Below, piece after piece: positions 1 through 29,178 of a stretch of DNA of 64,000 nucleotides (position 1 is its first letter; every line of letters starts with the position of its first letter). The notes beneath the pieces were generated by a model. It saw nothing but the letters and a program-made list of their open reading frames with translations, ran no database searches and had not been told where the DNA came from. Source of the DNA: an uncultured Clostridium sp. (GTDB lineage Bacteria; Bacillota; Clostridia; TANB77; CAG-508); the NCBI GenBank assembly GCA_900553985.1, contig USFW01000002.1, positions 875-64,874 on the forward strand, read 5' to 3'. Both the position numbers and the translations under genes were made by a program.

Positions 1-513
1 ATAAATAAAAACTTTGAAGATGCATTTAATGACGTTCCAAATGAGTTTGATTTATTATTATCTAATCATTGCATAGATGATATGATAATTTCAGAGTTTA
101 TGCAAAATTATTATAATAAAAATCTAAACAACGATAACTTTAAAGATATGCTAACAGAAGCATGGATAGAACTAGGAAAAGATAAAGCAAAGATTGATGA
201 AATAAGTAATAAAGTATTTTCTACATTTGAAAAATTCTTTTTAGATAAGAAAATAGGCACTATTATTATGAGCCAATATAAAAGTAATCTATATTTTAAA
301 GATGAGTTTAAAGAGATGGATGAAATAACTGAAAGTTGCTTTAACAGAATAAAACAGTTAACATCAATGGATAATGAATATGTTAATAAAATATTAAATT
401 TTTATCCTTTTGGAAATGATGAAAGATATAGAGGAAAATATTTATTAGATAATACTCAAAACGCCAAGAACTGGATTGTTGGAACAATAAATGTAATAAA
501 ACCTCTAAAATAA
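1..513 (+). CDS. 5'-truncated ORF; C-terminal part of a possible class I SAM-dependent methyltransferase-like protein
   Basis: Frame 1 is open from base 1 with no stop before the Met at 82, so the gene begins left of the window. FDLLLSNHCIDDM resembles the strand after motif II of small-molecule SAM methyltransferases. The rest is unrecognised. Confidence 0.3.
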   Translation: MNKNFEDAFNDVPNEFDLLLSNHCIDDMIISEFMQNYYNKNLNNDNFKDMLTEAWIELGKDKAKIDEISNKVFSTFEKFFLDKKIGTIIMSQYKSNLYFKDEFKEMDEITESCFNRIKQLTSMDNEYVNKILNFYPFGNDERYRGKYLLDNTQNAKNWIVGTINVIKPLK

Positions 514-517
514 TTTT

Positions 518-602
518 AATGTGCTTTATAAAATCAAGTCAAGGTTAAAATGAATGTGCGTTTGCACAACCTTGACTAAATTTTAAAAGCACATTATTTT
601 TT
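518..602 (+). terminator. Long imperfect hairpin plus T-run after the truncated ORF
   Basis: The arms AATGTGCTTTATAAAATCAAGTCAAGGTT (518-546) and AACCTTGACTAAATTTTAAAAGCACATT (568-595) are near-complementary. The loop holds a small GTGC..GCAC hairpin and is followed by ATTTTTT. Confidence 0.55.
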
Positions 603-778
603 CGGCTAAGAGGATTTAAGGATAAGTATATTTAATATAGTAAATGCATATACCCCGAAAATACCTCATAAAAAATGAGGGCAGGATAGCGTGCATCACG
701 CAACGCCTATACACATTGAAGGACAAGCCTTCAAGAGTTAATCAAAGAACAAAAATTTTATGCAAAAGTGATGCAGAA

Positions 779-930
779 ATTCACCGAGTGAACCCCAAAA
801 AAATGCCGTTTAGAGTGTGAAAGTTCACTAAATGAACCCTTTTTAAGGAAAAGTTCACCCGGTGTACTAAAATTAGTTCACTAAATGAACAAATGCTGAA
901 TAAATAAATTACAAAGTTCACCGAGTGAAC
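779..930. repeat. Array of five 15-bp dyad-symmetric sites (GTTCAC-N3-GTGAAC / GTTCA-N5-TGAAC)
   Basis: Sites: 779-793 ATTCACCGAGTGAAC, 823-837 GTTCACTAAATGAAC, 853-867 GTTCACCCGGTGTAC, 876-890 GTTCACTAAATGAAC, 916-930 GTTCACCGAGTGAAC. Four are preceded by A/AA. They lie just upstream of a TTGAAT(958)-17-TATAGT(981) promoter-like element for the 1013 gene. Confidence 0.7.
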
Positions 931-1012
931 TTGAATGAAATAACTATAGCATCATTATTGAATATATTTGAATTTTATGATATAGTATATAAAAATATTG
1001 TAGGAGAAGAAT

Positions 1013-2944
1013 ATGAGTAGTGAATATGAACAAGTAACTATATTTGAAGAAGATTATATTCAAAGAACAACAGGTACGGTAACACAGAAACCAGACAATG
1101 CTTTAACAGAGCTTATTGCTAATGCTTGGGATGCAGGAGCTAAAGAAGTAGATATAACGATACCTCTAGAAGAGCATGAAAAAATAATTATTAGAGATGA
1201 CGGAACTGGAATGACTCAAGATGAATTCAATCATAGATGGTTAACATTAAGTTATAATAGATTAAAAAATCAAGGTATTGATGTAGAATTTCCACCAGAA
1301 TCAAAAGGAATGATAAGAAAAGCTTATGGAAGGAATGGAATTGGAAGACACAGTATGTTTTGTTTTTCAAATTCATATCATATAGAAACTTGGAAAAATG
1401 GAAATTGTTTTAGCTGTGATATAGATTTATCTCATGGCGAAAGACCTTTTAAAATATATAATGCAAAAGTATATAAAAAAGAAGGACATGGAACAGAATT
1501 GTCTACATTTCTTACTCAAAATTTACCTGATGTTAAAAGTATTACTGATGTTCTTTCAGCAAGATATTTATTTGATCCTGGATTTGTAGTAAAAATTAAT
1601 AATGTAGTTGTTGATTTATCCAAACATAGTGGTTTGCAAAAAGAAGACGAAATAATACTAAAAAATGGAATAAAATTAAGAATTTATATTATTGATTCAA
1701 ATAAAACTGCCAAAAAATCTGTATATCATGGTATTGCATTTTGGGTAGGAAAAAGGCTAGTGGGAGAACCTTCTTGGGAATTAGGAAATAGAATGATAAG
1801 AGATGGTAGAACACAAATAGCAAAACGATATACGGTAGTAGTTCAAACAGAGGATATGTATGAAGATGTATTGCCAGATTGGACAGCATTCAAAGATAAT
1901 GATAGAACAAACGAAGTATTTGAAGAGGTTGCAAAATATGTAGATAATTATATACGCGAGATTAGTAAAGAAAAAAGGCAAGAAACCAAATTAGAAATTG
2001 TAAGAAATAGAATAGATGAGATAAAAGAGTTAAACAAATCATCACAAAGTGAAGTTGCAGAGTTTATAGATAATATTATTGAAGAAGAGCCAGATTTATC
2101 AATAGAAACAGTAGATTTAGCAGTTGAAACAATGATTAATATACAAAAATTAAGAAACGGACAAGAACTATTAAAAAAATTATCATCATTCTCAGAAGAT
2201 GACATAGATGCTTTAAATACTATTCTTGATAATTGGAATATTAAAGATATTCAATTAACACTTGATACTATAGACAAAAGAGTTTTGGTTGTAGAAGCAA
2301 TAGAAAGGTTGTGTTCGGATAAACATACAGATGAATTACATACACTTCACCCTTTAGTTGCTCAAGCAAGATGGTTATTTGGTCCAGAATACGATTCTGA
2401 AATGTATACATATAATAAAAGGTTAAATACTATAGTTAAAGATGTATTTAAAAATTTAAAATATACTGAACTTGAAGAACCAAATAGAAGACCAGATCTT
2501 GTAGTATTTGAAGAATCAGTTATTGCACCATATGGCTTTGAAGATTGGAATGACAAAGTGAGTTTAAATGAATATAAAAAAATACTGATAATAGAATTAA
2601 AAAAAGGCTTTTTTACAATTGAACAAGATGAAATAAGTCAGGCAATGACATATGTCAATGCACTATATAATTCTACATCACTTCCATCTAAACCTAGCAT
2701 ATGTGCGTATGTAGTTGGAGATAAGGTATCTAATAATATTTCTAGAAGTGTTAGAATGGAAGAAACAAAACAAATATGTGCTTGTACTTATTTAGAATTA
2801 GTTAGTACAGCTAAAAAAAGATTATTTAAATTAAGAGAGACATTAAATGAAAGATACGAAAAGATGTCAACTGAAAGTATAGTAGATAAAGTTTTGAAAG
2901 AACCAAAACAATTAGAAATTACAAAGGAAAATTTAAAAAAATAG
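1013..2944 (+). CDS. GHKL (HATPase_c_3/MORC-like) ATPase fused to a C-terminal PD-(D/E)xK nuclease resembling the Shedu DUF4263 core
   Basis: Bergerat-fold motifs are present: N-box ELIANAWDAGA, G1 IRDDGTGM, G2 GRNGIGRHS. A helical middle region follows. The C-terminus reads HPLVAQARWLFGPEY...RRPDLVVFEE...ILIIELKKG...Q (D...ExK). RBS is GGAGAAG. Terminator hairpins flank the locus (518-602 upstream of the leader, 3014-3066 after the stop). Confidence 0.6.
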   Translation: MSSEYEQVTIFEEDYIQRTTGTVTQKPDNALTELIANAWDAGAKEVDITIPLEEHEKIIIRDDGTGMTQDEFNHRWLTLSYNRLKNQGIDVEFPPESKGMIRKAYGRNGIGRHSMFCFSNSYHIETWKNGNCFSCDIDLSHGERPFKIYNAKVYKKEGHGTELSTFLTQNLPDVKSITDVLSARYLFDPGFVVKINNVVVDLSKHSGLQKEDEIILKNGIKLRIYIIDSNKTAKKSVYHGIAFWVGKRLVGEPSWELGNRMIRDGRTQIAKRYTVVVQTEDMYEDVLPDWTAFKDNDRTNEVFEEVAKYVDNYIREISKEKRQETKLEIVRNRIDEIKELNKSSQSEVAEFIDNIIEEEPDLSIETVDLAVETMINIQKLRNGQELLKKLSSFSEDDIDALNTILDNWNIKDIQLTLDTIDKRVLVVEAIERLCSDKHTDELHTLHPLVAQARWLFGPEYDSEMYTYNKRLNTIVKDVFKNLKYTELEEPNRRPDLVVFEESVIAPYGFEDWNDKVSLNEYKKILIIELKKGFFTIEQDEISQAMTYVNALYNSTSLPSKPSICAYVVGDKVSNNISRSVRMEETKQICACTYLELVSTAKKRLFKLRETLNERYEKMSTESIVDKVLKEPKQLEITKENLKK

Positions 2945-3013
2945 AAATAAGGGAAATAAAAGGGAATTGATTTTATAAAAACAGGGTAATATAATGGTAG
3001 CATGAAAAAGTGA

Positions 3014-3066
3014 GAGCAAGAAAGATTAGTTAAAAAAACTAATTTTTCTTAGCTCTTTTTCTTTTT
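3014..3066 (+). terminator. Rho-independent terminator after the GHKL-nuclease gene
   Basis: GAGCAAGAAAGATTAGTT (3014-3031) pairs with AACTAATTTTTCTTAGCTC (3037-3055), with one bulge. A T-rich run follows. Confidence 0.7.
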
Positions 3067-3094
3067 CAAATTTAAAGAAAAGGAGCAAAATTTC

Positions 3095-3271
3095 ATGCTA
3101 CATAAGTACGAAATAGAAGTTAATAATTCTAACAATTTAAAAGATAATGATATGCTAAATTGTAGCATGGAATTATCACTATTAAATAATTTGTTTAGAG
3201 AAAACTTAATAACAGAAGCAGAATATCAAGAAATAAAAAGAAAAATCTTAAAAGACTACAAACTTTTGTAA
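3095..3271 (+). CDS. 58-aa small protein upstream of the serine recombinase (SHOCT-like C-terminal helix)
   Basis: Below the ORF-track length cutoff. RBS AAAGGAG lies 8 nt before ATG 3095. Translation: MLHKYEIEVNNSNNLKDNDMLNCSMELSLLNNLFRENLITEAEYQEIKRKILKDYKLL. The LITEAEYxxIKxKIL ending resembles SHOCT-type short C-terminal domains. Confidence 0.4.
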   Translation: MLHKYEIEVNNSNNLKDNDMLNCSMELSLLNNLFRENLITEAEYQEIKRKILKDYKLL

Positions 3272-3343
3272 TATCAATTTACTTTTTGTTGAAAAAATGA
3301 TATAAAATATTTAAGTTTTATCTCTAGGCGGAATGGAGGAAAG

Positions 3344-5035
3344 ATGGAAATTCAAGTCATAGAGAAAACAAACGGAAGAATAAATAGAGTAACAGGCACT
3401 ACAATAAGAGAAAGATTAAGAGTATGTGCCTATTGCAGAGTAAGTACAGACAATGAAGAACAATTAAATAGTTATCAATCACAATTAAAGTATTATGATG
3501 AAAAAATAAATAGTAAATCAGAATGGCAGTTTGCAGGAATATATGCAGATGAAGCAATAACAGGAACACTAGATTTTAAAAGAACAGAATTTATGAGAAT
3601 GATAGCTGATGCTATGTCAGGAAAAATTGATATGATATTAACAAAATCAATATCAAGATTTGCTAGAAACACATTAGATACTTTAAAATATGTAAGAATG
3701 CTAAGAGAGAAAAATATTGCAATTCTTTTTGAAGAAGAAAATCTAAATACAACAACAGGTGCAGGAGAACTAATGCTAACAATATTAAGCGCTATGGCAC
3801 AACAAGAAAGTGAAAATATATCTTCACATGTTCTATTAGGTTTAAAAATGAAAAAAGACAGAGGAGAGTTAATTGGTTACAATGGTTGTTATGGATATAA
3901 TTACAATATTGAAACAAAAGAAATAACAATAAATGAAGATGAAGCAAGCATTGTTAGATATATGTTTGAAAGATATGTAGAAGGAATAGGTTCAAGTACA
4001 ATAGCAAAAGAACTAACAGCTAAAGGAATAAAAACTCCAAAAGGTGGAACAAAATGGTGTGAATCAACAATAAGAGGAATCCTAAAAAGCGAAAAATATA
4101 TTGGAGATGTGCTAATGGGAAAAACATTTACAATAGATCCAATATCACATAAAAGATTAAGCAATTTAGGAGAAGTAGACAAACATTATTACAAAGAACA
4201 TCACGAACCAATTATTAGCAAAGAATTATTTGATAGAGTACAAGAAATAAGAACAAAAAGAGCAGGAAATAGAGAAACAGGAAGAAGAAACGATAATTAC
4301 AGTAAAAAATATCCTTTTAGCAGTAAACTATATTGTGCTTTTTGTGGCTCATTACTCACAAGAAGAAATTGGAATGCAAATAGAAGCTGTGAAAAAGCAG
4401 TATGGCAATGCATAAAAAGAGCAAAACAAGGAAAAGAAGAATGCCCACATTGTAAAGCAATAGCAGAAGAAATAATAGAAGATTGTTTTGTACAAGGCTA
4501 TAGAATATTGTGTAATGATAACAGAAAAATAATTGAAACATTTTTAGAAAAGATAGAAAATATCTTAAAAGAAAATACTACAGAAACATTAGTAAGTAAA
4601 TTAGAAAAAGATAAAGAAAAAATAAACAAGAAACTTAATAATTTATTAGAATTAAATTTAGAAGGAAGAATCAATAAAGAACAATATACTTTAAAATTTG
4701 ATGAGTTAGATACAGAACTAATAAAAATTAATTCAAAGATAGAAAACCTACTAAAAGAAACAAACAGGACAGAAAGTATTAAACAGAGATTAAATAAGTT
4801 CAAAAGTTTATTTAAAAATATAGATATAATACCAAAGTTTGATAAAGATGTGTTTGAATGTTTAATTGATAAAGTAATTATTGGAGAAATCCAAGAAGAA
4901 GGAACAATAAATCCATATACAATAAGGTTTATTTGTAAAAACGGTAGTGAGATAAATTGCAAAGATGAATTTACTGCTACAAGCAATAAACAACATTCAA
5001 ATAATACTGCAACCAGAGAGAAACAACGCATGTAG
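3344..5035 (+). CDS. Large serine recombinase (resolvase catalytic domain + recombinase domain + zinc ribbon + coiled coil)
   Basis: N-terminal RVCAYCRVSTDNEEQ carries the catalytic Ser. ISRFARN motif, Cys clusters CAFCG...CIKRAKQGKEECPHC and a K/E-rich coiled coil are present. 563 aa. Confidence 0.85.
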   Translation: MEIQVIEKTNGRINRVTGTTIRERLRVCAYCRVSTDNEEQLNSYQSQLKYYDEKINSKSEWQFAGIYADEAITGTLDFKRTEFMRMIADAMSGKIDMILTKSISRFARNTLDTLKYVRMLREKNIAILFEEENLNTTTGAGELMLTILSAMAQQESENISSHVLLGLKMKKDRGELIGYNGCYGYNYNIETKEITINEDEASIVRYMFERYVEGIGSSTIAKELTAKGIKTPKGGTKWCESTIRGILKSEKYIGDVLMGKTFTIDPISHKRLSNLGEVDKHYYKEHHEPIISKELFDRVQEIRTKRAGNRETGRRNDNYSKKYPFSSKLYCAFCGSLLTRRNWNANRSCEKAVWQCIKRAKQGKEECPHCKAIAEEIIEDCFVQGYRILCNDNRKIIETFLEKIENILKENTTETLVSKLEKDKEKINKKLNNLLELNLEGRINKEQYTLKFDELDTELIKINSKIENLLKETNRTESIKQRLNKFKSLFKNIDIIPKFDKDVFECLIDKVIIGEIQEEGTINPYTIRFICKNGSEINCKDEFTATSNKQHSNNTATREKQRM

Positions 5036-5159
5036 AATGCATTGCTGTGTTATATTTAAAATAAACTCTACATAAGAAAAAATATTAAAATAGATAAATT
5101 CAAGAAATAAAGAGGAGAATTTATATTACGAAAAAAGTTTATATAATTATATAAGTACT

Positions 5160-5206
5160 AAAAAGTAGATATTTTAAAATACTAAATCTAAAATATCTAC
5201 TTTTTT
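5160..5206. terminator. Bidirectional hairpin terminator
   Basis: AAAAAGTAGATATTTTA ... TAAAATATCTACTTTTT forms a perfect stem flanked by A and T runs. Confidence 0.6.
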
Positions 5207-5281
5207 CTAATGTCAATGTTACCTTTATTAAAAAAATGGTAATATATAGTCAGATATCTAAAAAAGGAGCTTTAAAGCGAA

Positions 5282-5847
5282 ATGAGGAATAAGAAAATAA
5301 AGGAGTTTGTTTTTAAAGGAAGTATCAATATAGAAAAAATAATAAAAGAATATGCTCGGATATGTATATATTATTATAAAAAATAGTGGATATTTATTTA
5401 GCAATGAAGATGTAGAAGAAATTGCATCAGATGTATTTCTTACTATATGGAAAAATAAAGAAAAATTAGATATAAATAAGGAAATTTCACCATATATAGC
5501 AGGAATAACAAAAAATTTACTTAGAAAAAAGAAAAGAGATATTAAAAATATAAACGAAAATATTAAAAATATTGACGAATTACAAAATTATTTATCTGAT
5601 AAAATTGATTACACACAATGAAGCAGAGGAACAAGAAAAAATAGATATTGTAACAGAAGAATTAACGAAAATGAAAAAAGAGGATAAGAATATTTTTACA
5701 TATTATTATTACGAGTCAAAAAACATAAAAGAAATAGCCAATATATTAGGAATTACAGAAATAAAAGCAAAATCAAGATTATCAAGAATCAGAAAAAAAT
5801 TAAGAAAAGAATTAGAAAAAAGGGGGTATAGCTATGGAAGAAAATAA
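5282..5847 (+). pseudogene. ECF-type sigma-70 family sigma factor, reading frame broken
   Basis: Region 2 (EDVEEIASDVFLTIWKNKEKL) is in ORF 5352-5621. Region 4 HTH (IKEIANILGITEIKAKSRLSRIRKKL) is in a different frame (5572-5847), with the switch near 5600-5620. A possible second break lies at about 5346-5354, where an upstream ATG (5282) ORF ends ..IEKIIKEY. Confidence 0.65.
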
Positions 5848-6980
5848 AATAATAGAAAGGATAATAAAAAAATCACAGGTAAAAATAGCTATATCCAAAT
5901 TTATAGAGGGGGAAAAATATATGCCAAAGTCAACTAAAATCTTAAAAACGGTAGCAACAATTGTTATTACACTAGGTATAGGAACAGGATTAGTATATGC
6001 GACAGGAACAGTAGTAAGTGAAAAAATATGGAAAGAACCAAAGCAATATAAAATTAATCAAAATTTAACAGACGAAGAAAGAAAAGAATGCATAACACAA
6101 GAAAAAGCAGAAGAAATAGCAAACAATTATTTAAAGAAAATAGGATTAGAAGAAGAAAAAATAAAGGATTTAAATTTGGCAAAGAACTTTTTTAGAAATG
6201 ATAAGATTTGGCATGTGAGTACTGAAAAAGTATCTATGCAAATTGATGCTGAAAGTGGAAAAGTAGAATTTTTAAATATTCCAACTTGGAATTATAAAAT
6301 TCCATACAACTATGGAATTACAAGAGAAGAAGCTAGAAGTGTAGCAAAAGAATTATTAGAAAAATATAGGCCAGAAGGGTATGATGGCGAATATGAGTTG
6401 GTTTGTTTAAGAAGAAATATGGAAACAGATGAAGCATCATATATCTGGTATGCAGATTTTTATAGAAAATATGATAACTTAATAAATAAATCAGAGCAAA
6501 TAAGTATTGGGTGGGTACCAACAATAAATGGACTATATTCTTTAACTTTAAAAAATATACCATATGAAAATAATGAACAGAAAATATCAAAAGAACAAGC
6601 AATAAATATAACAGTCGAAAAAGACAAACAAATAGAAAAGAACAAAACAATAAAAGAAACAAAGGCTGAAATTAGAATAAAAGAAATGAATGAAGATATA
6701 TATTTAAGAGAAAATTTTAAAGAAGAATATGAAAATGGTACACTTAATACAGAAAAGACAGGAGAAAATACATATAAATTAAAAGACGATGCAGTTGCTT
6801 TTGAAACAGAGAAGAGGGCAAGAAAAGTATGGTGTGTTGTCATTAATTATAATGAAAGTTTACGGATATACTTATTATGTTGATGCAACAACAGGAGAAA
6901 TAATAGGTGGGTCACATTCTGATGAATTGATAAATGAAAAAATTTTATTGGAAGATGAAAATAATTTGATTGAAAAATAA
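5834..6980 (+). pseudogene. Membrane-anchored anti-sigma-like protein with PepSY-like repeats, frameshifted near its 3' end
   Basis: Overlaps the sigma gene stop. It has one N-terminal TM (ILKTVATIVITLGIGTGLVYA). The C-terminal PepSY-like ending YYVDATTGEIIGG is in another frame (6789-6980), with the frame change at about 6830-6850. Confidence 0.5.
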
Positions 6981-7162
6981 GAAAAGCAGATTTTTCCTAT
7001 ACAATAAGAAAGGCACTTCATATTTGAGGTGCTTTTTATAATAGCTATTTTAATTTGCAAAAATATCAAAAATATGATATTCTATTAAAGAGTTCTGAAA
7101 AATAAATAATAATCAAAATATAAAATAACAAATAACATAAAAAATAAAGAAAGGCATAAAAT

Positions 7163-8218
7163 ATGGAAAAAAAAGGTAAAGTATTACTTGGAATGAGTGG
7201 AGGAGTAGATAGCTCTGTTTCAGCAATATTATTACAAGAACAAGGATATGAAGTAATAGGTGCAACCTTAGAATTATTTGGAGATAGTTGTAATAATATA
7301 ACTACTGTAAAAGATGCTAAAAAAGTTTGTGAAAAATTAGGTATAAAACATATAACAATAGAATTAAAAAAAGAATTTTACAAGTACGTAATAAAAGATT
7401 TTATAGACAGTTATTCTATATGTGAGACACCAAACCCATGTATAAAATGTAATAGATATATAAAATTTGATATAATGCATAAAAAGGCAAAAGAATTAGG
7501 ATGTGATTATTTAGCAACAGGTCATTATGCTAAAATAGAATATGATGAAAAGTGGAATCAAAAAGTATTAAAAAAATCAGATTCTATAAGAAAAGATCAA
7601 AGTTATGTTTTATACAATGTAAAAAAAGAGATATTACAAGATACAATTTTTCCTTTGGGAGAGTTTGAAAACAAAGATGAAATAAGAGAAATAGCAAGAA
7701 CACACGGATTAGAAGTTGCTAATAAAAAAGATAGTGAAGATATATGCTTTATACCAGATAATAATTATGTACGATTTTTAGAAGAAAATAATTTGAAATC
7801 AAAAAAGGGAAATATTGTTGATACTAAAGGGAATATATTAGGAAAGCATACAGGTCTATATAAATATACAATAGGACAGAGAAAAGGTTTGGGAATATCT
7901 AGTAAGTATCCACTGTATGTAGTTAAACTTGATAAAGATAAAAATGAAGTTATAGTTGGAAAAGAAGAAGAAATTTTCAGCCCAAAAGCAATAATAACAG
8001 ATTTTAATAATTTATTAACAGAAAATAAAATTGAAAATATGAAGGTAAAAGCCAAAGTAAGATATTCAGCAAAAGAAGCAGATGCAATCATCAACCAAAT
8101 TGATAATAAAACTGTTGAAGTTAATTTTTTAGAGCCACAAAGGGCTATTACTCCTGGACAATCATTAGTTTTATATATAGATGATATAGTGTTAGGAGGA
8201 GGAAAAATAGTAAAATAG
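7163..8218 (+). CDS. mnmA: tRNA 2-thiouridine(34) synthase MnmA
   Basis: PP-loop GMSGGVDSSVSA, PNPCIKCNRYIKF and ATGHYA motifs. 351 aa. Confidence 0.9.
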   Translation: MEKKGKVLLGMSGGVDSSVSAILLQEQGYEVIGATLELFGDSCNNITTVKDAKKVCEKLGIKHITIELKKEFYKYVIKDFIDSYSICETPNPCIKCNRYIKFDIMHKKAKELGCDYLATGHYAKIEYDEKWNQKVLKKSDSIRKDQSYVLYNVKKEILQDTIFPLGEFENKDEIREIARTHGLEVANKKDSEDICFIPDNNYVRFLEENNLKSKKGNIVDTKGNILGKHTGLYKYTIGQRKGLGISSKYPLYVVKLDKDKNEVIVGKEEEIFSPKAIITDFNNLLTENKIENMKVKAKVRYSAKEADAIINQIDNKTVEVNFLEPQRAITPGQSLVLYIDDIVLGGGKIVK

Positions 8219-26968: not shown

Positions 26969-27877
26969 ATGGAAGAAAATGCAGAAATAATAAATGAAAA
27001 AGGCACAGAAAAAAATAAAAAAGAAAAAAACAATGCTAAAAGAAAGACATTAACAATAAATGGTATAAGTATATGGAGAATTTTAGCATATTTTATTATA
27101 TATAGTGTAGCTGGATATATAATAGAAACGGTGTATGGAATGATAACAAAAGGCGTTTGGGAAAGTAGACAGAGTTTTTTATACGGACCATTTTGTGGAA
27201 TATATGGATTAGGTGCAGTAGTAATGATTATATTCCTTCATAAATTTCCTAAAAAATATAATGCATTATTTATTGGAGGATTTATAGTTGGTTCTATTAC
27301 AGAATATTTAGTTAGTTTATTTGGAGAATTAATTTTAGGAGTAAAATGGTGGGACTATTCAAATATGCCATTTAATATTAATGGTAGAATATGTATGTTA
27401 TTTTCACTATTTTGGGGATTTCTTGCAATTTACTTAATTGCATCTTTAAATCCTAAAGTAGACAAATTAATTAATTGGGTAAAAAGTAAATTCAAAACAT
27501 ATAAATCTTTAAAGGCTTTTATAATTACTGTTACAGTATTACTACTATTAGATTGTGTAGCAACAGGATTTGCATTAGATTTCTTTAAAATAAGAATGAT
27601 AGAAAAAAATAATATAAATGTACCAAATAAAGAACTTATATCAAAAAGATATGATGAAATATATAATCAAAATCCTAAACTAGCAGATTTTATATACAAA
27701 TTCTGGGGAGATAAAAAAATGATAAAAACTTTCCCTAATTTAAAAACACAAGATGTAAATGGAAATATCGTTTATATGGATAGCTTTTTAGACATTCAGC
27801 CATATTACATGAAAGTACATGATATACACCTAAAAAATAATAAAGAAGTTGAAGATAATATAAAAGGTGAAGAATAA
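26969..27877 (+). CDS. PF06541-like polytopic membrane protein with a C-terminal extension
   Basis: YFIIYSVAGYIIETVYG...RQSFLYGPFCGIYGLGAV...KWWDYSN. Confidence 0.55.
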   Translation: MEENAEIINEKGTEKNKKEKNNAKRKTLTINGISIWRILAYFIIYSVAGYIIETVYGMITKGVWESRQSFLYGPFCGIYGLGAVVMIIFLHKFPKKYNALFIGGFIVGSITEYLVSLFGELILGVKWWDYSNMPFNINGRICMLFSLFWGFLAIYLIASLNPKVDKLINWVKSKFKTYKSLKAFIITVTVLLLLDCVATGFALDFFKIRMIEKNNINVPNKELISKRYDEIYNQNPKLADFIYKFWGDKKMIKTFPNLKTQDVNGNIVYMDSFLDIQPYYMKVHDIHLKNNKEVEDNIKGEE

Positions 27878-27891
27878 AAAGGAATATAATG

Positions 27892-27929
27892 AAAAGATAT
27901 TATTCAAATATTTGAATAATATCTTTTTT
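27892..27929. terminator. Perfect palindromic bidirectional terminator
   Basis: AAAAGATATTATTCAAATATTTGAATAATATCTTTTTT. Confidence 0.75.
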
Positions 27930-28026
27930 GTTACTAATCCTATTATTTTAAGTTCTAATTTTTATAATTAAAGAATTACAACAATTATATCTTCAAAATA
28001 TATAATATATATGTTTAAAACCTCTT

Positions 28027-28155
28027 CTTATTGTATAGGAAAAATCGACTTTTATCTTGACCCTATATAGGATTTTTCCGTATACAACAAGTAAAAGTTA
28101 CCTTTAAAAAGACTCGCGATAGCTTTTCTTATGTAGATTCGCTACGTTTCTTATT
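28027..28155 (+). repeat. Intergenic repeat family 1, copy 1 (~130 nt, two hairpins)
   Basis: About 17 differences in ~130 nt against 34056-34185 by hand alignment. It contains TTGTATAGGAAAAATC ... GATTTTTCCGTATACAA and GCGATAGC...GCTACG inverted repeats. Confidence 0.8.
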
Positions 28156-28185
28156 AAAAATAAGCATAATTAAGAATATAAAATA

Positions 28186-29178
28186 TTAAATATCAGCAAG
28201 AGGATTACTTTCAACTGCATTTCTAACTTGTGAATTATCAACATGAGTATATATTTCAGTTGTAGAAATGCTTTCATGACCTAATAATTCTTGCAAAGCT
28301 CTAATATCAACATTACCATATTGATACATTAAAGTAGCTGCCGTATGTCTTAGTTTATGAACAGAGAACTTAGAAGTATCAAAACCTGCAATTTTCAATT
28401 CTTTATCAACAATATATTGAACTGTTCTTCTACTAATTCGTTCTCGTCGTTCACTTAAAAATAAAGCTTTATGTGAGTTTTGTTTATCAACTTTCACGCC
28501 TTCCTTTGGGCGAACTTCTAAATATTCATGAATAGCCTTTAAACAAGCTTTATTTAAGTATATAGTTCTCTCTTTATTTCCTTTACCTATAACTGATAAT
28601 CTAGCTTCACTAAAATCAATATCTTTTATATTTATATTTACTAATTCAGATAAACGCAAGCCACAATTTAAAAATAAGGTAATTATAGCATAGTCTCTTT
28701 GAAAATTCCTGTTATCTTCATTTGCTGTAACTTCTAAAAGCTTTTTACTTTGGTCTAAGTTTAAATATTTAGGTAGTCGTTTATCAGATTTTGGAGTTTC
28801 CAAGTTTTGGGCAGGATTTATTTCTATTAAATTTGCTTTTTGACTTAAATAATTAAAAAATATCCTTATAGTAGAGCATTTTCTTGCTCTAGTTGCAGCC
28901 TTACTACGCAATTCAATGGCCATATAACTTAAAAATGAATGTATATCTTCTAAGGTAATCTTTTTTATAACTTCAATAGAAATATCTTTAATTTCTATTT
29001 TTGAAAAATCACTTTCATTTGTCAAGTTATAATGTATTTTTATAAATCTTAAGAACATCATTAAGTCATAGTTATATTCTTTAATACTATTTGGTGATTT
29101 ATTTAAAATAGTAGCACTATAATCTAAAAAAGAATTAAGGTAGTCTGGGTTTTCATCTTTTCTTATCATCTGTTTCAC
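28186..29178 (-). CDS. XerC/XerD-like tyrosine recombinase
   Basis: N-terminal SAM-like core-binding domain. Catalytic signature ...GLRLSEL..., HKLRHTAAT, LLGHESISTTEIYTHV. Confidence 0.85.
   Translation of the reverse strand: MKQMIRKDENPDYLNSFLDYSATILNKSPNSIKEYNYDLMMFLRFIKIHYNLTNESDFSKIEIKDISIEVIKKITLEDIHSFLSYMAIELRSKAATRARKCSTIRIFFNYLSQKANLIEINPAQNLETPKSDKRLPKYLNLDQSKKLLEVTANEDNRNFQRDYAIITLFLNCGLRLSELVNINIKDIDFSEARLSVIGKGNKERTIYLNKACLKAIHEYLEVRPKEGVKVDKQNSHKALFLSERRERISRRTVQYIVDKELKIAGFDTSKFSVHKLRHTAATLMYQYGNVDIRALQELLGHESISTTEIYTHVDNSQVRNAVESNPLADI

Follow-up and report, generated by a model that had tools for sequence, protein, structure and literature searches.

The subject of this work is a gene located at positions 1013-2944 (+ strand) of a 64,000-nucleotide stretch of DNA from an uncultured Clostridium sp. 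(contig USFW01000002.1); this whole stretch is referred to below as the window. The gene codes for a 643 aa fusion of a GHKL ATPase with a Shedu-type nuclease, and its product is probably a self-contained, horizontally mobile nuclease that defends against phages and other invading DNA. The architecture and the class are already known: they were predicted in 2008 as paraMORC3 (Iyer, Abhiman & Aravind, 2008, PMC2292703), classified in 2023 as Type 1D Shedu (Gu et al., 2023, bioRxiv 10.1101/2023.08.10.552793) and validated in 2025 with the VcSduA protein of Vibrio cholerae (Adams et al., Nat Microbiol 2025, PMC12137116). The gene described here is a divergent, currently unannotated member of this GHKL-Shedu/paraMORC3 class.

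The open reading frame (ORF) is complete and uninterrupted in a window which is AT-rich (about 26% G+C). An identical protein (100%, P0001) is encoded on an independent metagenomic contig, L013. In the translation the peptides ELIANAWDA (aa 33-41), DDGTGM (aa 62-67) and GRNGIGRHS (aa 106-114) are followed in the C-terminal part by HPLVAQARWLFGPEY (aa 446-460), RRPDLVVFEE (aa 492-501), ILIIELKKG (aa 524-532) and Q543. This motif set is real and far above chance. A search of 5.8 billion proteins found homologues in more than 2,400 clusters at 90% identity, nearly all of them full length (630-650 aa) and annotated in the protein database at most as 'ATP-binding protein'. Conservation was read from an alignment of 21 sequences with 43-86% identity (A1), and the C-terminal domain was aligned separately (A2). 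Four domains can be delimited in the protein, and we consider the domain assignment as a whole to be nearly certain.

The GHKL (Bergerat-fold) ATPase domain is encoded by positions 1013-1582 (+ strand, aa ~1-190) and was delimited by Pfam and PDB matches, conservation and a predicted local distance difference test (pLDDT) score of 83-94. A complete Bergerat ATP-binding fold had been proposed for this region by the initial annotation, a reading of the sequence made without database searches, and this proposal is confirmed. Pfam HATPase_c_3 (PF13589) matches aa 28-150 with E=1.6e-17, and all four GHKL motifs are invariant in A1: E33, N37 and D40 (motif I), D62-G64-G66 (motif II), G106, G109 and G111 (motif III) and G160-T161 (motif IV). 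The presence of motifs I-IV together with a significant HATPase_c-type match argues for membership in the GHKL ATPase superfamily. The N-terminus also matches MutL N-terminal domains in NCBIfam and PDB.

The next 250 aa or so had been described as a helical or coiled region. This is correct for the second part of it, about 140 aa of helices (aa ~296-435), and not for the first 100 aa or so (aa ~190-295), which form an alpha/beta middle domain. This GHKL-associated domain of the transducer/S5-like type (1583-1897, + strand, aa ~191-295) was delimited by the AlphaFold2 (AF2) model, Foldseek and conservation. Its invariant residues are G240, A242-F243-W244, P253, W255, D264, R266, A270-K271 and D289-W290. 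The AF2 model built on A1 has a mean pLDDT of 77 and places a beta-rich second domain at aa ~190-295. Foldseek aligns 360-430 columns of the model to two-domain ATPase modules in the PDB, namely those of Hsp90/TRAP1 (N+M), MORC2, MORC4 and GyrB-43K; for the full model, all matches in PDB and BFVD were to generic GHKL proteins (Hsp90, MORC, GyrB, rIIA). The helical linker (1898-2317, + strand, aa ~296-435) is known from the AF2 secondary structure, with the lowest confidence at aa 381-412.

The C-terminal PD-(D/E)xK nuclease domain of Shedu type corresponds to positions 2318-2872 (+ strand, aa ~436-620) and is of alpha/beta composition. Residues D440-E441, H446-P447, R493-P494-D495, E528-x-K530-G532 and Q543...Y547 are invariant in A1, and this set reads as a classical E-PD-ExK-Q..Y nuclease core. 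HSDR_N_2, a family of the PD-(D/E)xK clan, gives recurrent weak matches to the C-terminal domains of 11 out of 15 family members, and direct profile assignment of the domain gave one match to NucS_C. When the nuclease profile was run exhaustively with HMMER against 1.84 billion representatives, it matched 730 clusters at 50% identity (411 at E<=1e-10). All of the matches listed are either proteins of 620-690 aa with the domain at ~430-640 or gene fragments; therefore, this nuclease subtype occurs essentially only within the GHKL fusion.

The assignment of the nuclease to Shedu goes through an intermediate subfamily. Full-length homologues with 22-31% identity were found by tblastn in plasmids of Proteobacteria. 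One of them, a 586 aa protein of S. meliloti (L010), is collinear with the window protein (pairwise E=7e-29) and has its motifs in register: KRPDLLL corresponds to RRPDLVV, LIEFKRP to IIELKKG and QAEQY to QAMTY. This bridge protein passes the gathering threshold of Pfam SduA_C (27.9 vs 27 bits, aa 440-530). Its family gave 2,178 matches, and a precomputed PF14082 assignment is present on about 14 of the 120 matches listed; one relative of this type is named 'Shedu anti-phage system protein SduA domain-containing protein' by NCBI. The alignment of this ~586 aa S. meliloti/Martelella subfamily, combining HATPase_c_3 with SduA_C, is designated A5. PADLOC SduA models match A5 members weakly, and they cover the region equivalent to the helical linker as well (aa 312-459 of P0241). 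In an hhalign comparison A1 and A5 aligned over 554 columns with a probability of 100% (E=2.2e-44). With the C-terminal domain by itself (A2), the alignment fell on A5 columns 461-603, which is the SduA_C region, at a probability of 98.3% and E=1.9e-14. Indirectly, the nuclease domain thus appears homologous to bona fide SduA_C domains, and the call 'Shedu-like' holds because of this transitive profile evidence through A5. The Shedu-like D...ExK core noticed in the initial annotation is borne out in the same transitive way.

Direct comparisons weigh against this assignment. The window protein has no match to PF14082 (SduA_C/DUF4263) at E<=1, and none of 15 isolated C-terminal domains has one even at E<=10, so of the two Pfam families initially suggested for the protein only HATPase_c_3 was found. 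PADLOC gives no SduA match for the window protein either. PDB profile searches started from the C-terminal domain, the bridge protein or VcSduA reach no Shedu or nuclease structure. When the isolated C-terminal model (pLDDT 82) was compared with PDB by Foldseek, nothing was found at E<0.001; the best matches, all non-significant (E 0.02-0.2), were MspJI (E=0.023), McrC and EndoMS, and the SduA structures sought there were absent from the top 50. The relationship of the window protein to VcSduA is very remote. BLASTP between the two is non-significant, and hhalign with the VcSduA family gives a collinear alignment with E=0.0054 and a probability of 6.7%. The N-terminal motif characteristic of the window family, ANAWDAGA, is present in none of the 543 published VcSduA-model hits, whose listed sequences cover 400 aa each and make N-terminal motifs searchable. 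The profile alignment with VcSduA has DxGxG, GxxGxG, PD, ExK, Q..Y and the C-terminal helix in register. The possibility that the window protein is a VcSduA orthologue was rejected on BLASTP, hhalign and the motif search of model hits. VcSduA itself has no Pfam or PADLOC match by hmmscan, and it is also distant from A5 (hhalign 48%, E=1.8e-4). Judging by these comparisons, the window clade has diverged so far that the current SduA models no longer detect it.

The main rival explanation is still a defence reading, with another self/non-self logic. It takes the protein for a solitary restriction endonuclease (REase) of the BbrUII/HgiDII lineage (SalI isoschizomers), which would either be specific for a sequence or depend on modification (Type IV-like); its methyltransferase would be unlinked, no longer present or not needed. 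The best NCBIfam match of the window protein is indeed NF050001 'BbrUII/HgiDII family restriction enzyme' (E=7.8e-30), and its best PADLOC matches are REase_II models (PDLC03419). However, NF050001 scores 104 bits vs a 550-bit cutoff, practically all of the match lies in the GHKL domain (best stretch aa 31-144), and the middle and C-terminal thirds scanned alone give no match to this model. Full-length relatives with 22% identity, such as a Pantoea plasmid protein (L009), are encoded by genes of true restriction-modification (R-M) type accompanied by a methylase, and the same holds for a phage 'ParaMORC3'. The Pantoea protein can be aligned with 92% of the window protein and matches NF050001 end-to-end with 304 bits; its gene overlaps an upstream 5-methylcytosine (m5C) methyltransferase gene. 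The phage 'ParaMORC3', however, matches the family profile only over aa 26-207, i.e., the GHKL domain. There is no methyltransferase adjoining the gene in the window, and methyltransferase is not a conserved neighbour at 72 loci of the family, where no m5C methylase is found among the top 25 neighbour families. Moreover, the window family is far closer to the stand-alone subfamily bearing SduA_C (E=2e-44). A solitary REase is therefore an unlikely identity for the protein, and a Shedu-type fusion is preferred. The stand-alone GHKL-Shedu proteins and the BbrUII/HgiDII Type II REases nevertheless appear to form one superfamily.

Two loci of R-M type deserve description in their own right. Positions 4902-7920 of L009 (Pantoea agglomerans plasmid pPagL15_1) contain the R-M-type relative together with the m5C methyltransferase gene in a prophage or P2-like hotspot region. 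At 3920-6968 of L158 (Escherichia phage PhiR44_1, P2-like) the 'ParaMORC3' gene is located beside Dcm, and its product matches PADLOC REase_II with 305 bits.

Turning to the defence reading itself, the distribution of the GHKL-Shedu family is that of a mobile gene. It was found in at least 284 of 185,579 species (one genome per species), patchily across phyla. The carriers, a good part of them gut Clostridia, include Clostridia, Bacilli, Paenibacillus, Desulfobacterota, Acidobacteriota, Bacteroidota, Verrucomicrobiota, Betaproteobacteria, Chloroflexota and one archaeal metagenome-assembled genome (MAG). Nucleotide similarity to relatives which are 81-82% identical begins and ends at the ORF (from 1002/1012 to 2945/2950), and the flanks are unrelated. 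The gene is transferred as a one-gene cassette.

The surroundings of the family were surveyed using 136 immediately adjacent ORFs from 72 loci, with the top 25 families reported. No conserved partner was found, as no Pfam family occurs more than 6 times among the 136 ORFs. In particular, the 6 ORFs with N6_Mtase belong to other, complete R-M systems, and a conserved partner of antitoxin type is lacking. Defence functions predominate among the neighbours. According to Pfam, they include N6_Mtase, ResIII, MmeI/Eco57I, Schlafen/AlbA_2, KwaB, SIR2_2, Vsr, AbiEii-like AAA_21, BrxL, PglZ and FokI; PADLOC adds Type I/IIG/III R-M, PglX, DrmMI, mad2 and pAgo. Family members are thus surrounded by genes of R-M, BREX, DISARM, Kiwa, SIR2, pAgo and CRISPR systems, by integrases and by prophage moron slots. 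In individual loci the gene is located beside tyrosine integrases together with Type I or Type III R-M and Mrr, adjoins Cas12a-CRISPR and Fic, or lies beside a Type I R-M system. About one fifth of the immediate neighbours are of defence type, a rough count taken from the top-25 list without a matched control, and the defence-island association is qualitative, which tempers the defence reading.

A further locus was observed on a 2.39-Mb contig of a Clostridia MAG (L005 8001-9935, the same as L023). Here a myovirus-like prophage contains, inserted after its tape-measure gene and before its baseplate genes or in the reverse order, a 46% identical family member and the genes of a HicA/HicB toxin-antitoxin pair. 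This insertion is a typical 'moron' defence slot.

Similarity that ends at the ORF borders, the lack of a conserved neighbour and surroundings rich in defence genes and mobile elements all bear out the proposal that the gene is a candidate single-gene defence system, and we regard a defence role as highly likely. A conserved housekeeping context for the homologues, which would have spoken against it, was not observed: they occupy variable, defence-rich neighbourhoods.

The immediate context of the gene in the window is that of a mobile element. The large serine recombinase which the initial annotation placed next to the gene is indeed there, at 3344-5035 (+ strand), with Resolvase, Recombinase and Zn_ribbon_recom domains (Pfam E=6e-31, 5e-26 and 2e-10, respectively). 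Its similarity to CcrB, CcrC and XisF models is below their cutoffs. A large serine recombinase marks an integrative mobile element. Between the two genes there is an ORF for a 58 aa SHOCT-domain protein (3095-3271, + strand; Pfam SHOCT_2 E=3.5e-6), also present on L013. The latter contig has the same arrangement of the gene, the SHOCT ORF and the recombinase gene, 99.9% identical.

The DNA upstream of the gene had been noted as unusual. A motif count revealed at positions 779-930 (no strand assigned) an array of five 15-bp palindromes GTTCAC-N3-RTGAAC, five sites vs 0.27 expected in 64 kb. The hairpin at 914-932 is the fifth palindrome copy and has no T-run on the + strand. It was considered as a terminator or a gene-specific operator and rejected in both roles, being one of five iterons of an array missing at other homologue loci. 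Other family members' genes lack such an array in their upstream DNA, which assigns it to the carrier element rather than to the nuclease gene. The upstream DNA is therefore unusual in containing an iteron array of phage-origin type, and this feature is not part of the gene's own regulation.

Paired copies of the palindrome were found in 64 IMG/VR viral contigs, and in 31 out of 64 the array is located inside an ORF. Twenty-seven of these 31 ORFs are mutually homologous and code for replication initiators with HTH_36 and DnaB_2/DnaD-like domains, in which a repeated linker peptide, V-H-x-M/V-N, is specified by the palindromes. In phage origins it is a classic arrangement that the iterons lie within the initiator gene. 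No intact initiator gene is present around the array in the window, so it is an orphan or relic origin; within the element that bears the recombinase gene it is suggestive of an origin of relic or satellite type. The gene is carried as cargo by a phage-like integrative element that also comprises the orphan iteron array, the SHOCT ORF and the serine recombinase.

With the gene located between an origin-type iteron array and the SHOCT and recombinase genes, and with relatives located beside integrases and, together with HicAB, in a prophage tail module, it might be supposed that it mainly serves its carrier element, by excluding rival phages and plasmids or as an addiction module, rather than host immunity. 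However, relatives with 81-86% identity occur in non-element contexts (e.g., next to Type I R-M) where the ORF alone is conserved, and because these close relatives have wholly different contexts, the gene is not bound to a particular element. An addiction module is further disfavoured by the lack of a conserved antitoxin-like partner, and element service overlaps with defence anyway. We regard a mainly element-serving role as very improbable. It is scarcely credible that the gene codes for a housekeeping protein of DNA repair or chromosome organisation like MutL or MORC, as its N-terminal similarity to MutL and the fold shared with ATPase modules of MORC, GyrB and Hsp90 might suggest, since the MutL similarity is limited to about 55 N-terminal residues of the ATP-binding site (40 bits vs cutoffs of 180-937), the MutL C-terminal domain is not present in the window protein, the family has the sparse species distribution given above, and the neighbourhoods are variable, without repair-gene partners and with cassette-like transfer.

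The preferred reading of the gene as a GHKL-Shedu defence nuclease leads to a tentative mechanism. The enzymology of the GHKL enzymes MutL, GyrB, MORC and Hsp90 serves here as the analogy. By this analogy, and by that with VcSduA genetics, ATP binding would dimerise the N-terminal GHKL domains, and dimerisation would close a clamp to which the middle and linker domains contribute. The clamp cycle might then license direct cleavage of foreign DNA by the nuclease (E441/D495/E528/K530). The sparing of self DNA would depend on what the sensor or clamp recognises, such as DNA ends, structures or modification state, and not on a cognate methylase. We would give this specific clamp-gating mechanism about an even chance of being correct. 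It is conceivable, if on balance doubtful, that the Bacillota-centred clade is a functionally distinct branch of the superfamily that also includes A5, VcSduA, BbrUII/HgiDII and the phage 'ParaMORC3'+Dcm pairs. The gene would then represent a methylase-free ATP-gated clamp of a kind not yet described for Shedu, which senses, e.g., topology, ends or hypomodification, and a widespread immune gene of gut Clostridia overlooked by Pfam SduA_C, PADLOC v2 SduA and the VcSduA model.

As to expression, the gene had been thought to have its own promoter-like element and to lie between two strong terminator hairpins. A consensus scan does find a promoter-like element at 958-986 (+ strand), composed of TTGAAT, a 17-nt spacer and TATAGT, preceded by a TG (extended -10). 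In DNA so rich in A+T, elements of this kind are no more frequent than chance predicts (40 in the region vs 35 expected from shuffles). A TG-extended -10 box of a similar kind precedes the 68% identical copies L001 and L002, which have unrelated contexts, and this lends the element some support. It is plausible that the 958-986 element is a promoter. A ribosome-binding site, AGGAGAA, can be read from the sequence at 1002-1008 (+ strand), about 5-7 nt 5' of the ATG. Only the downstream one of the two terminators stood up. A long hairpin followed by a T-run is located at 3012-3068 (+ strand), about 70 nt past the stop codon; RNA folding of the hairpin (3012-3057/3068) gives a free energy of -29.5 kcal/mol (z=-6.9), and none of 200 shuffles was equally stable. 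This is a convincing intrinsic terminator. The upstream hairpin, with no T-run, is the iteron described above. An Rfam scan of window positions 1-8000 found no credible RNA.

Several features around the element can be mentioned. An ORF at 82-513, immediately preceding the island, extends upstream past the window start; the full protein of 180 aa is encoded on L013 (778-1320), and Pfam gives nothing significant for it beyond a weak similarity to PMSR that stays below threshold. Between the hairpin-rich region 526-600 and the iteron array there is a non-coding stretch (600-780) which is locally richer in G+C, e.g., CCCCGAAAATACCTCATAAAAAATGAGGGCAGGATAGCGTGCATCACGCAACGCC; it has no Rfam match at E<=1.

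Downstream of the recombinase gene, a sigma-70 gene of the extracytoplasmic function (ECF) type at 5283-5847 is split over three frames: its N-terminal part starts at 5283, and Sigma70_r2 and Sigma70_r4 occupy 5352-5618 and 5572-5844, respectively. Either the gene is a pseudogene or the assembly has frameshifts in A-runs. The split gene was considered as the attachment site of the element; this was rejected, as its N-terminus is present in another frame and the gene is merely frameshifted. The sigma gene is followed by a gene for a PepSY-like membrane protein (5834-6880), possibly an anti-sigma factor. Further along the window, at ~27000-29000, both GC and AT skew flip from positive to negative near 28 kb, where the cumulative skew peaks, and gene orientation turns from + to - near the same point. 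This pattern is expected at a replication terminus, a large inversion or an assembly boundary.

With the architecture and the defence role already established, the gene opens no new category. Its significance lies in the fact that a sizeable and widespread clade with the GHKL-Shedu architecture escapes the Pfam SduA_C, PADLOC SduA and published VcSduA models, so this clade is probably under-represented in defence censuses of Firmicute and gut genomes. A functional-metagenomics preprint on human faeces mentions neither GHKL nor Shedu nor MORC. The protein is also a Gram-positive representative for studying how a GHKL clamp may gate a PD-(D/E)xK nuclease. The link to BbrUII/HgiDII offers a natural comparison of the same ATPase-nuclease chassis with and without a methylase.

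Among the known systems, the BbrUII/HgiDII enzymes have the same overall length and an N-terminal GHKL domain, and their true members pair with an m5C methylase, whereas the window family has no such partner. Canonical SduA of B. cereus and E. coli (PF14082) resembles the window protein in that one protein provides the nuclease defence, its PD-(D/E)xK core being joined to a variable sensor at the N-terminus. Its homology to the window protein is transitive via A5, with no direct sequence or fold match. The N-terminus of canonical Shedu is a nucleic-acid-binding sensor, while that of the window protein is an ATPase; canonical Shedu is tetrameric through its nuclease domain, while GHKL proteins typically dimerise.

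The paraMORC3 proteins were defined by a GHKL domain, an S5 domain and a C-terminal restriction endonuclease-fold domain with E-D-ExK motifs (Iyer, Abhiman & Aravind, 2008). They are sporadic, laterally mobile, often stand-alone, and prevalent in Proteobacteria and Bacteroidetes (PMC2292703). The window protein fits this definition, as the AF2 model predicts an S5/transducer-like middle domain after GHKL, and the invariant E441, D495, E528 and K530 correspond to the E-D-ExK motifs. The phage gene annotated with this name differs in sharing only the GHKL domain with the window-family profile.

In Type 1D Shedu, DUF4263 is combined with a HATPase_c_3 fold and a middle domain termed 'N24' (Gu et al., 2023). 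This type, represented here by A5, shares with the window protein the order of HATPase_c_3, GHKL middle ('N24') domain, helical linker and PD-(D/E)xK nuclease. A5 genes, like those of the window family, stand alone on plasmids and islands. Identity between A5 and the window protein is only ~23%, and the window protein is ~55 aa longer. A5 members reach the Pfam SduA_C and PADLOC SduA models, while the window family stays below detection, and they belong to Alphaproteobacteria, while the window family is found mostly in Bacillota and gut Clostridia.

VcSduA is the only experimentally tested member of the GHKL-Shedu class. This GHKL + DUF4263 protein of the V. cholerae WASA lineage (A1552VC_00276) protects against T1-like phages, and the E27A (ATPase) and K557A (nuclease) mutants each lose protection (Adams et al., 2025). 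The protection is observed at all multiplicities of infection, hence it is non-abortive, and a dimeric clamp was predicted (PMC12137116). The host of VcSduA belongs to Gammaproteobacteria, unlike those of the window family. Similarly to the window gene, VcSduA is a single gene that combines a GHKL ATPase with a PD-(D/E)xK nuclease, its product being 673 aa long vs 643 aa in the window.

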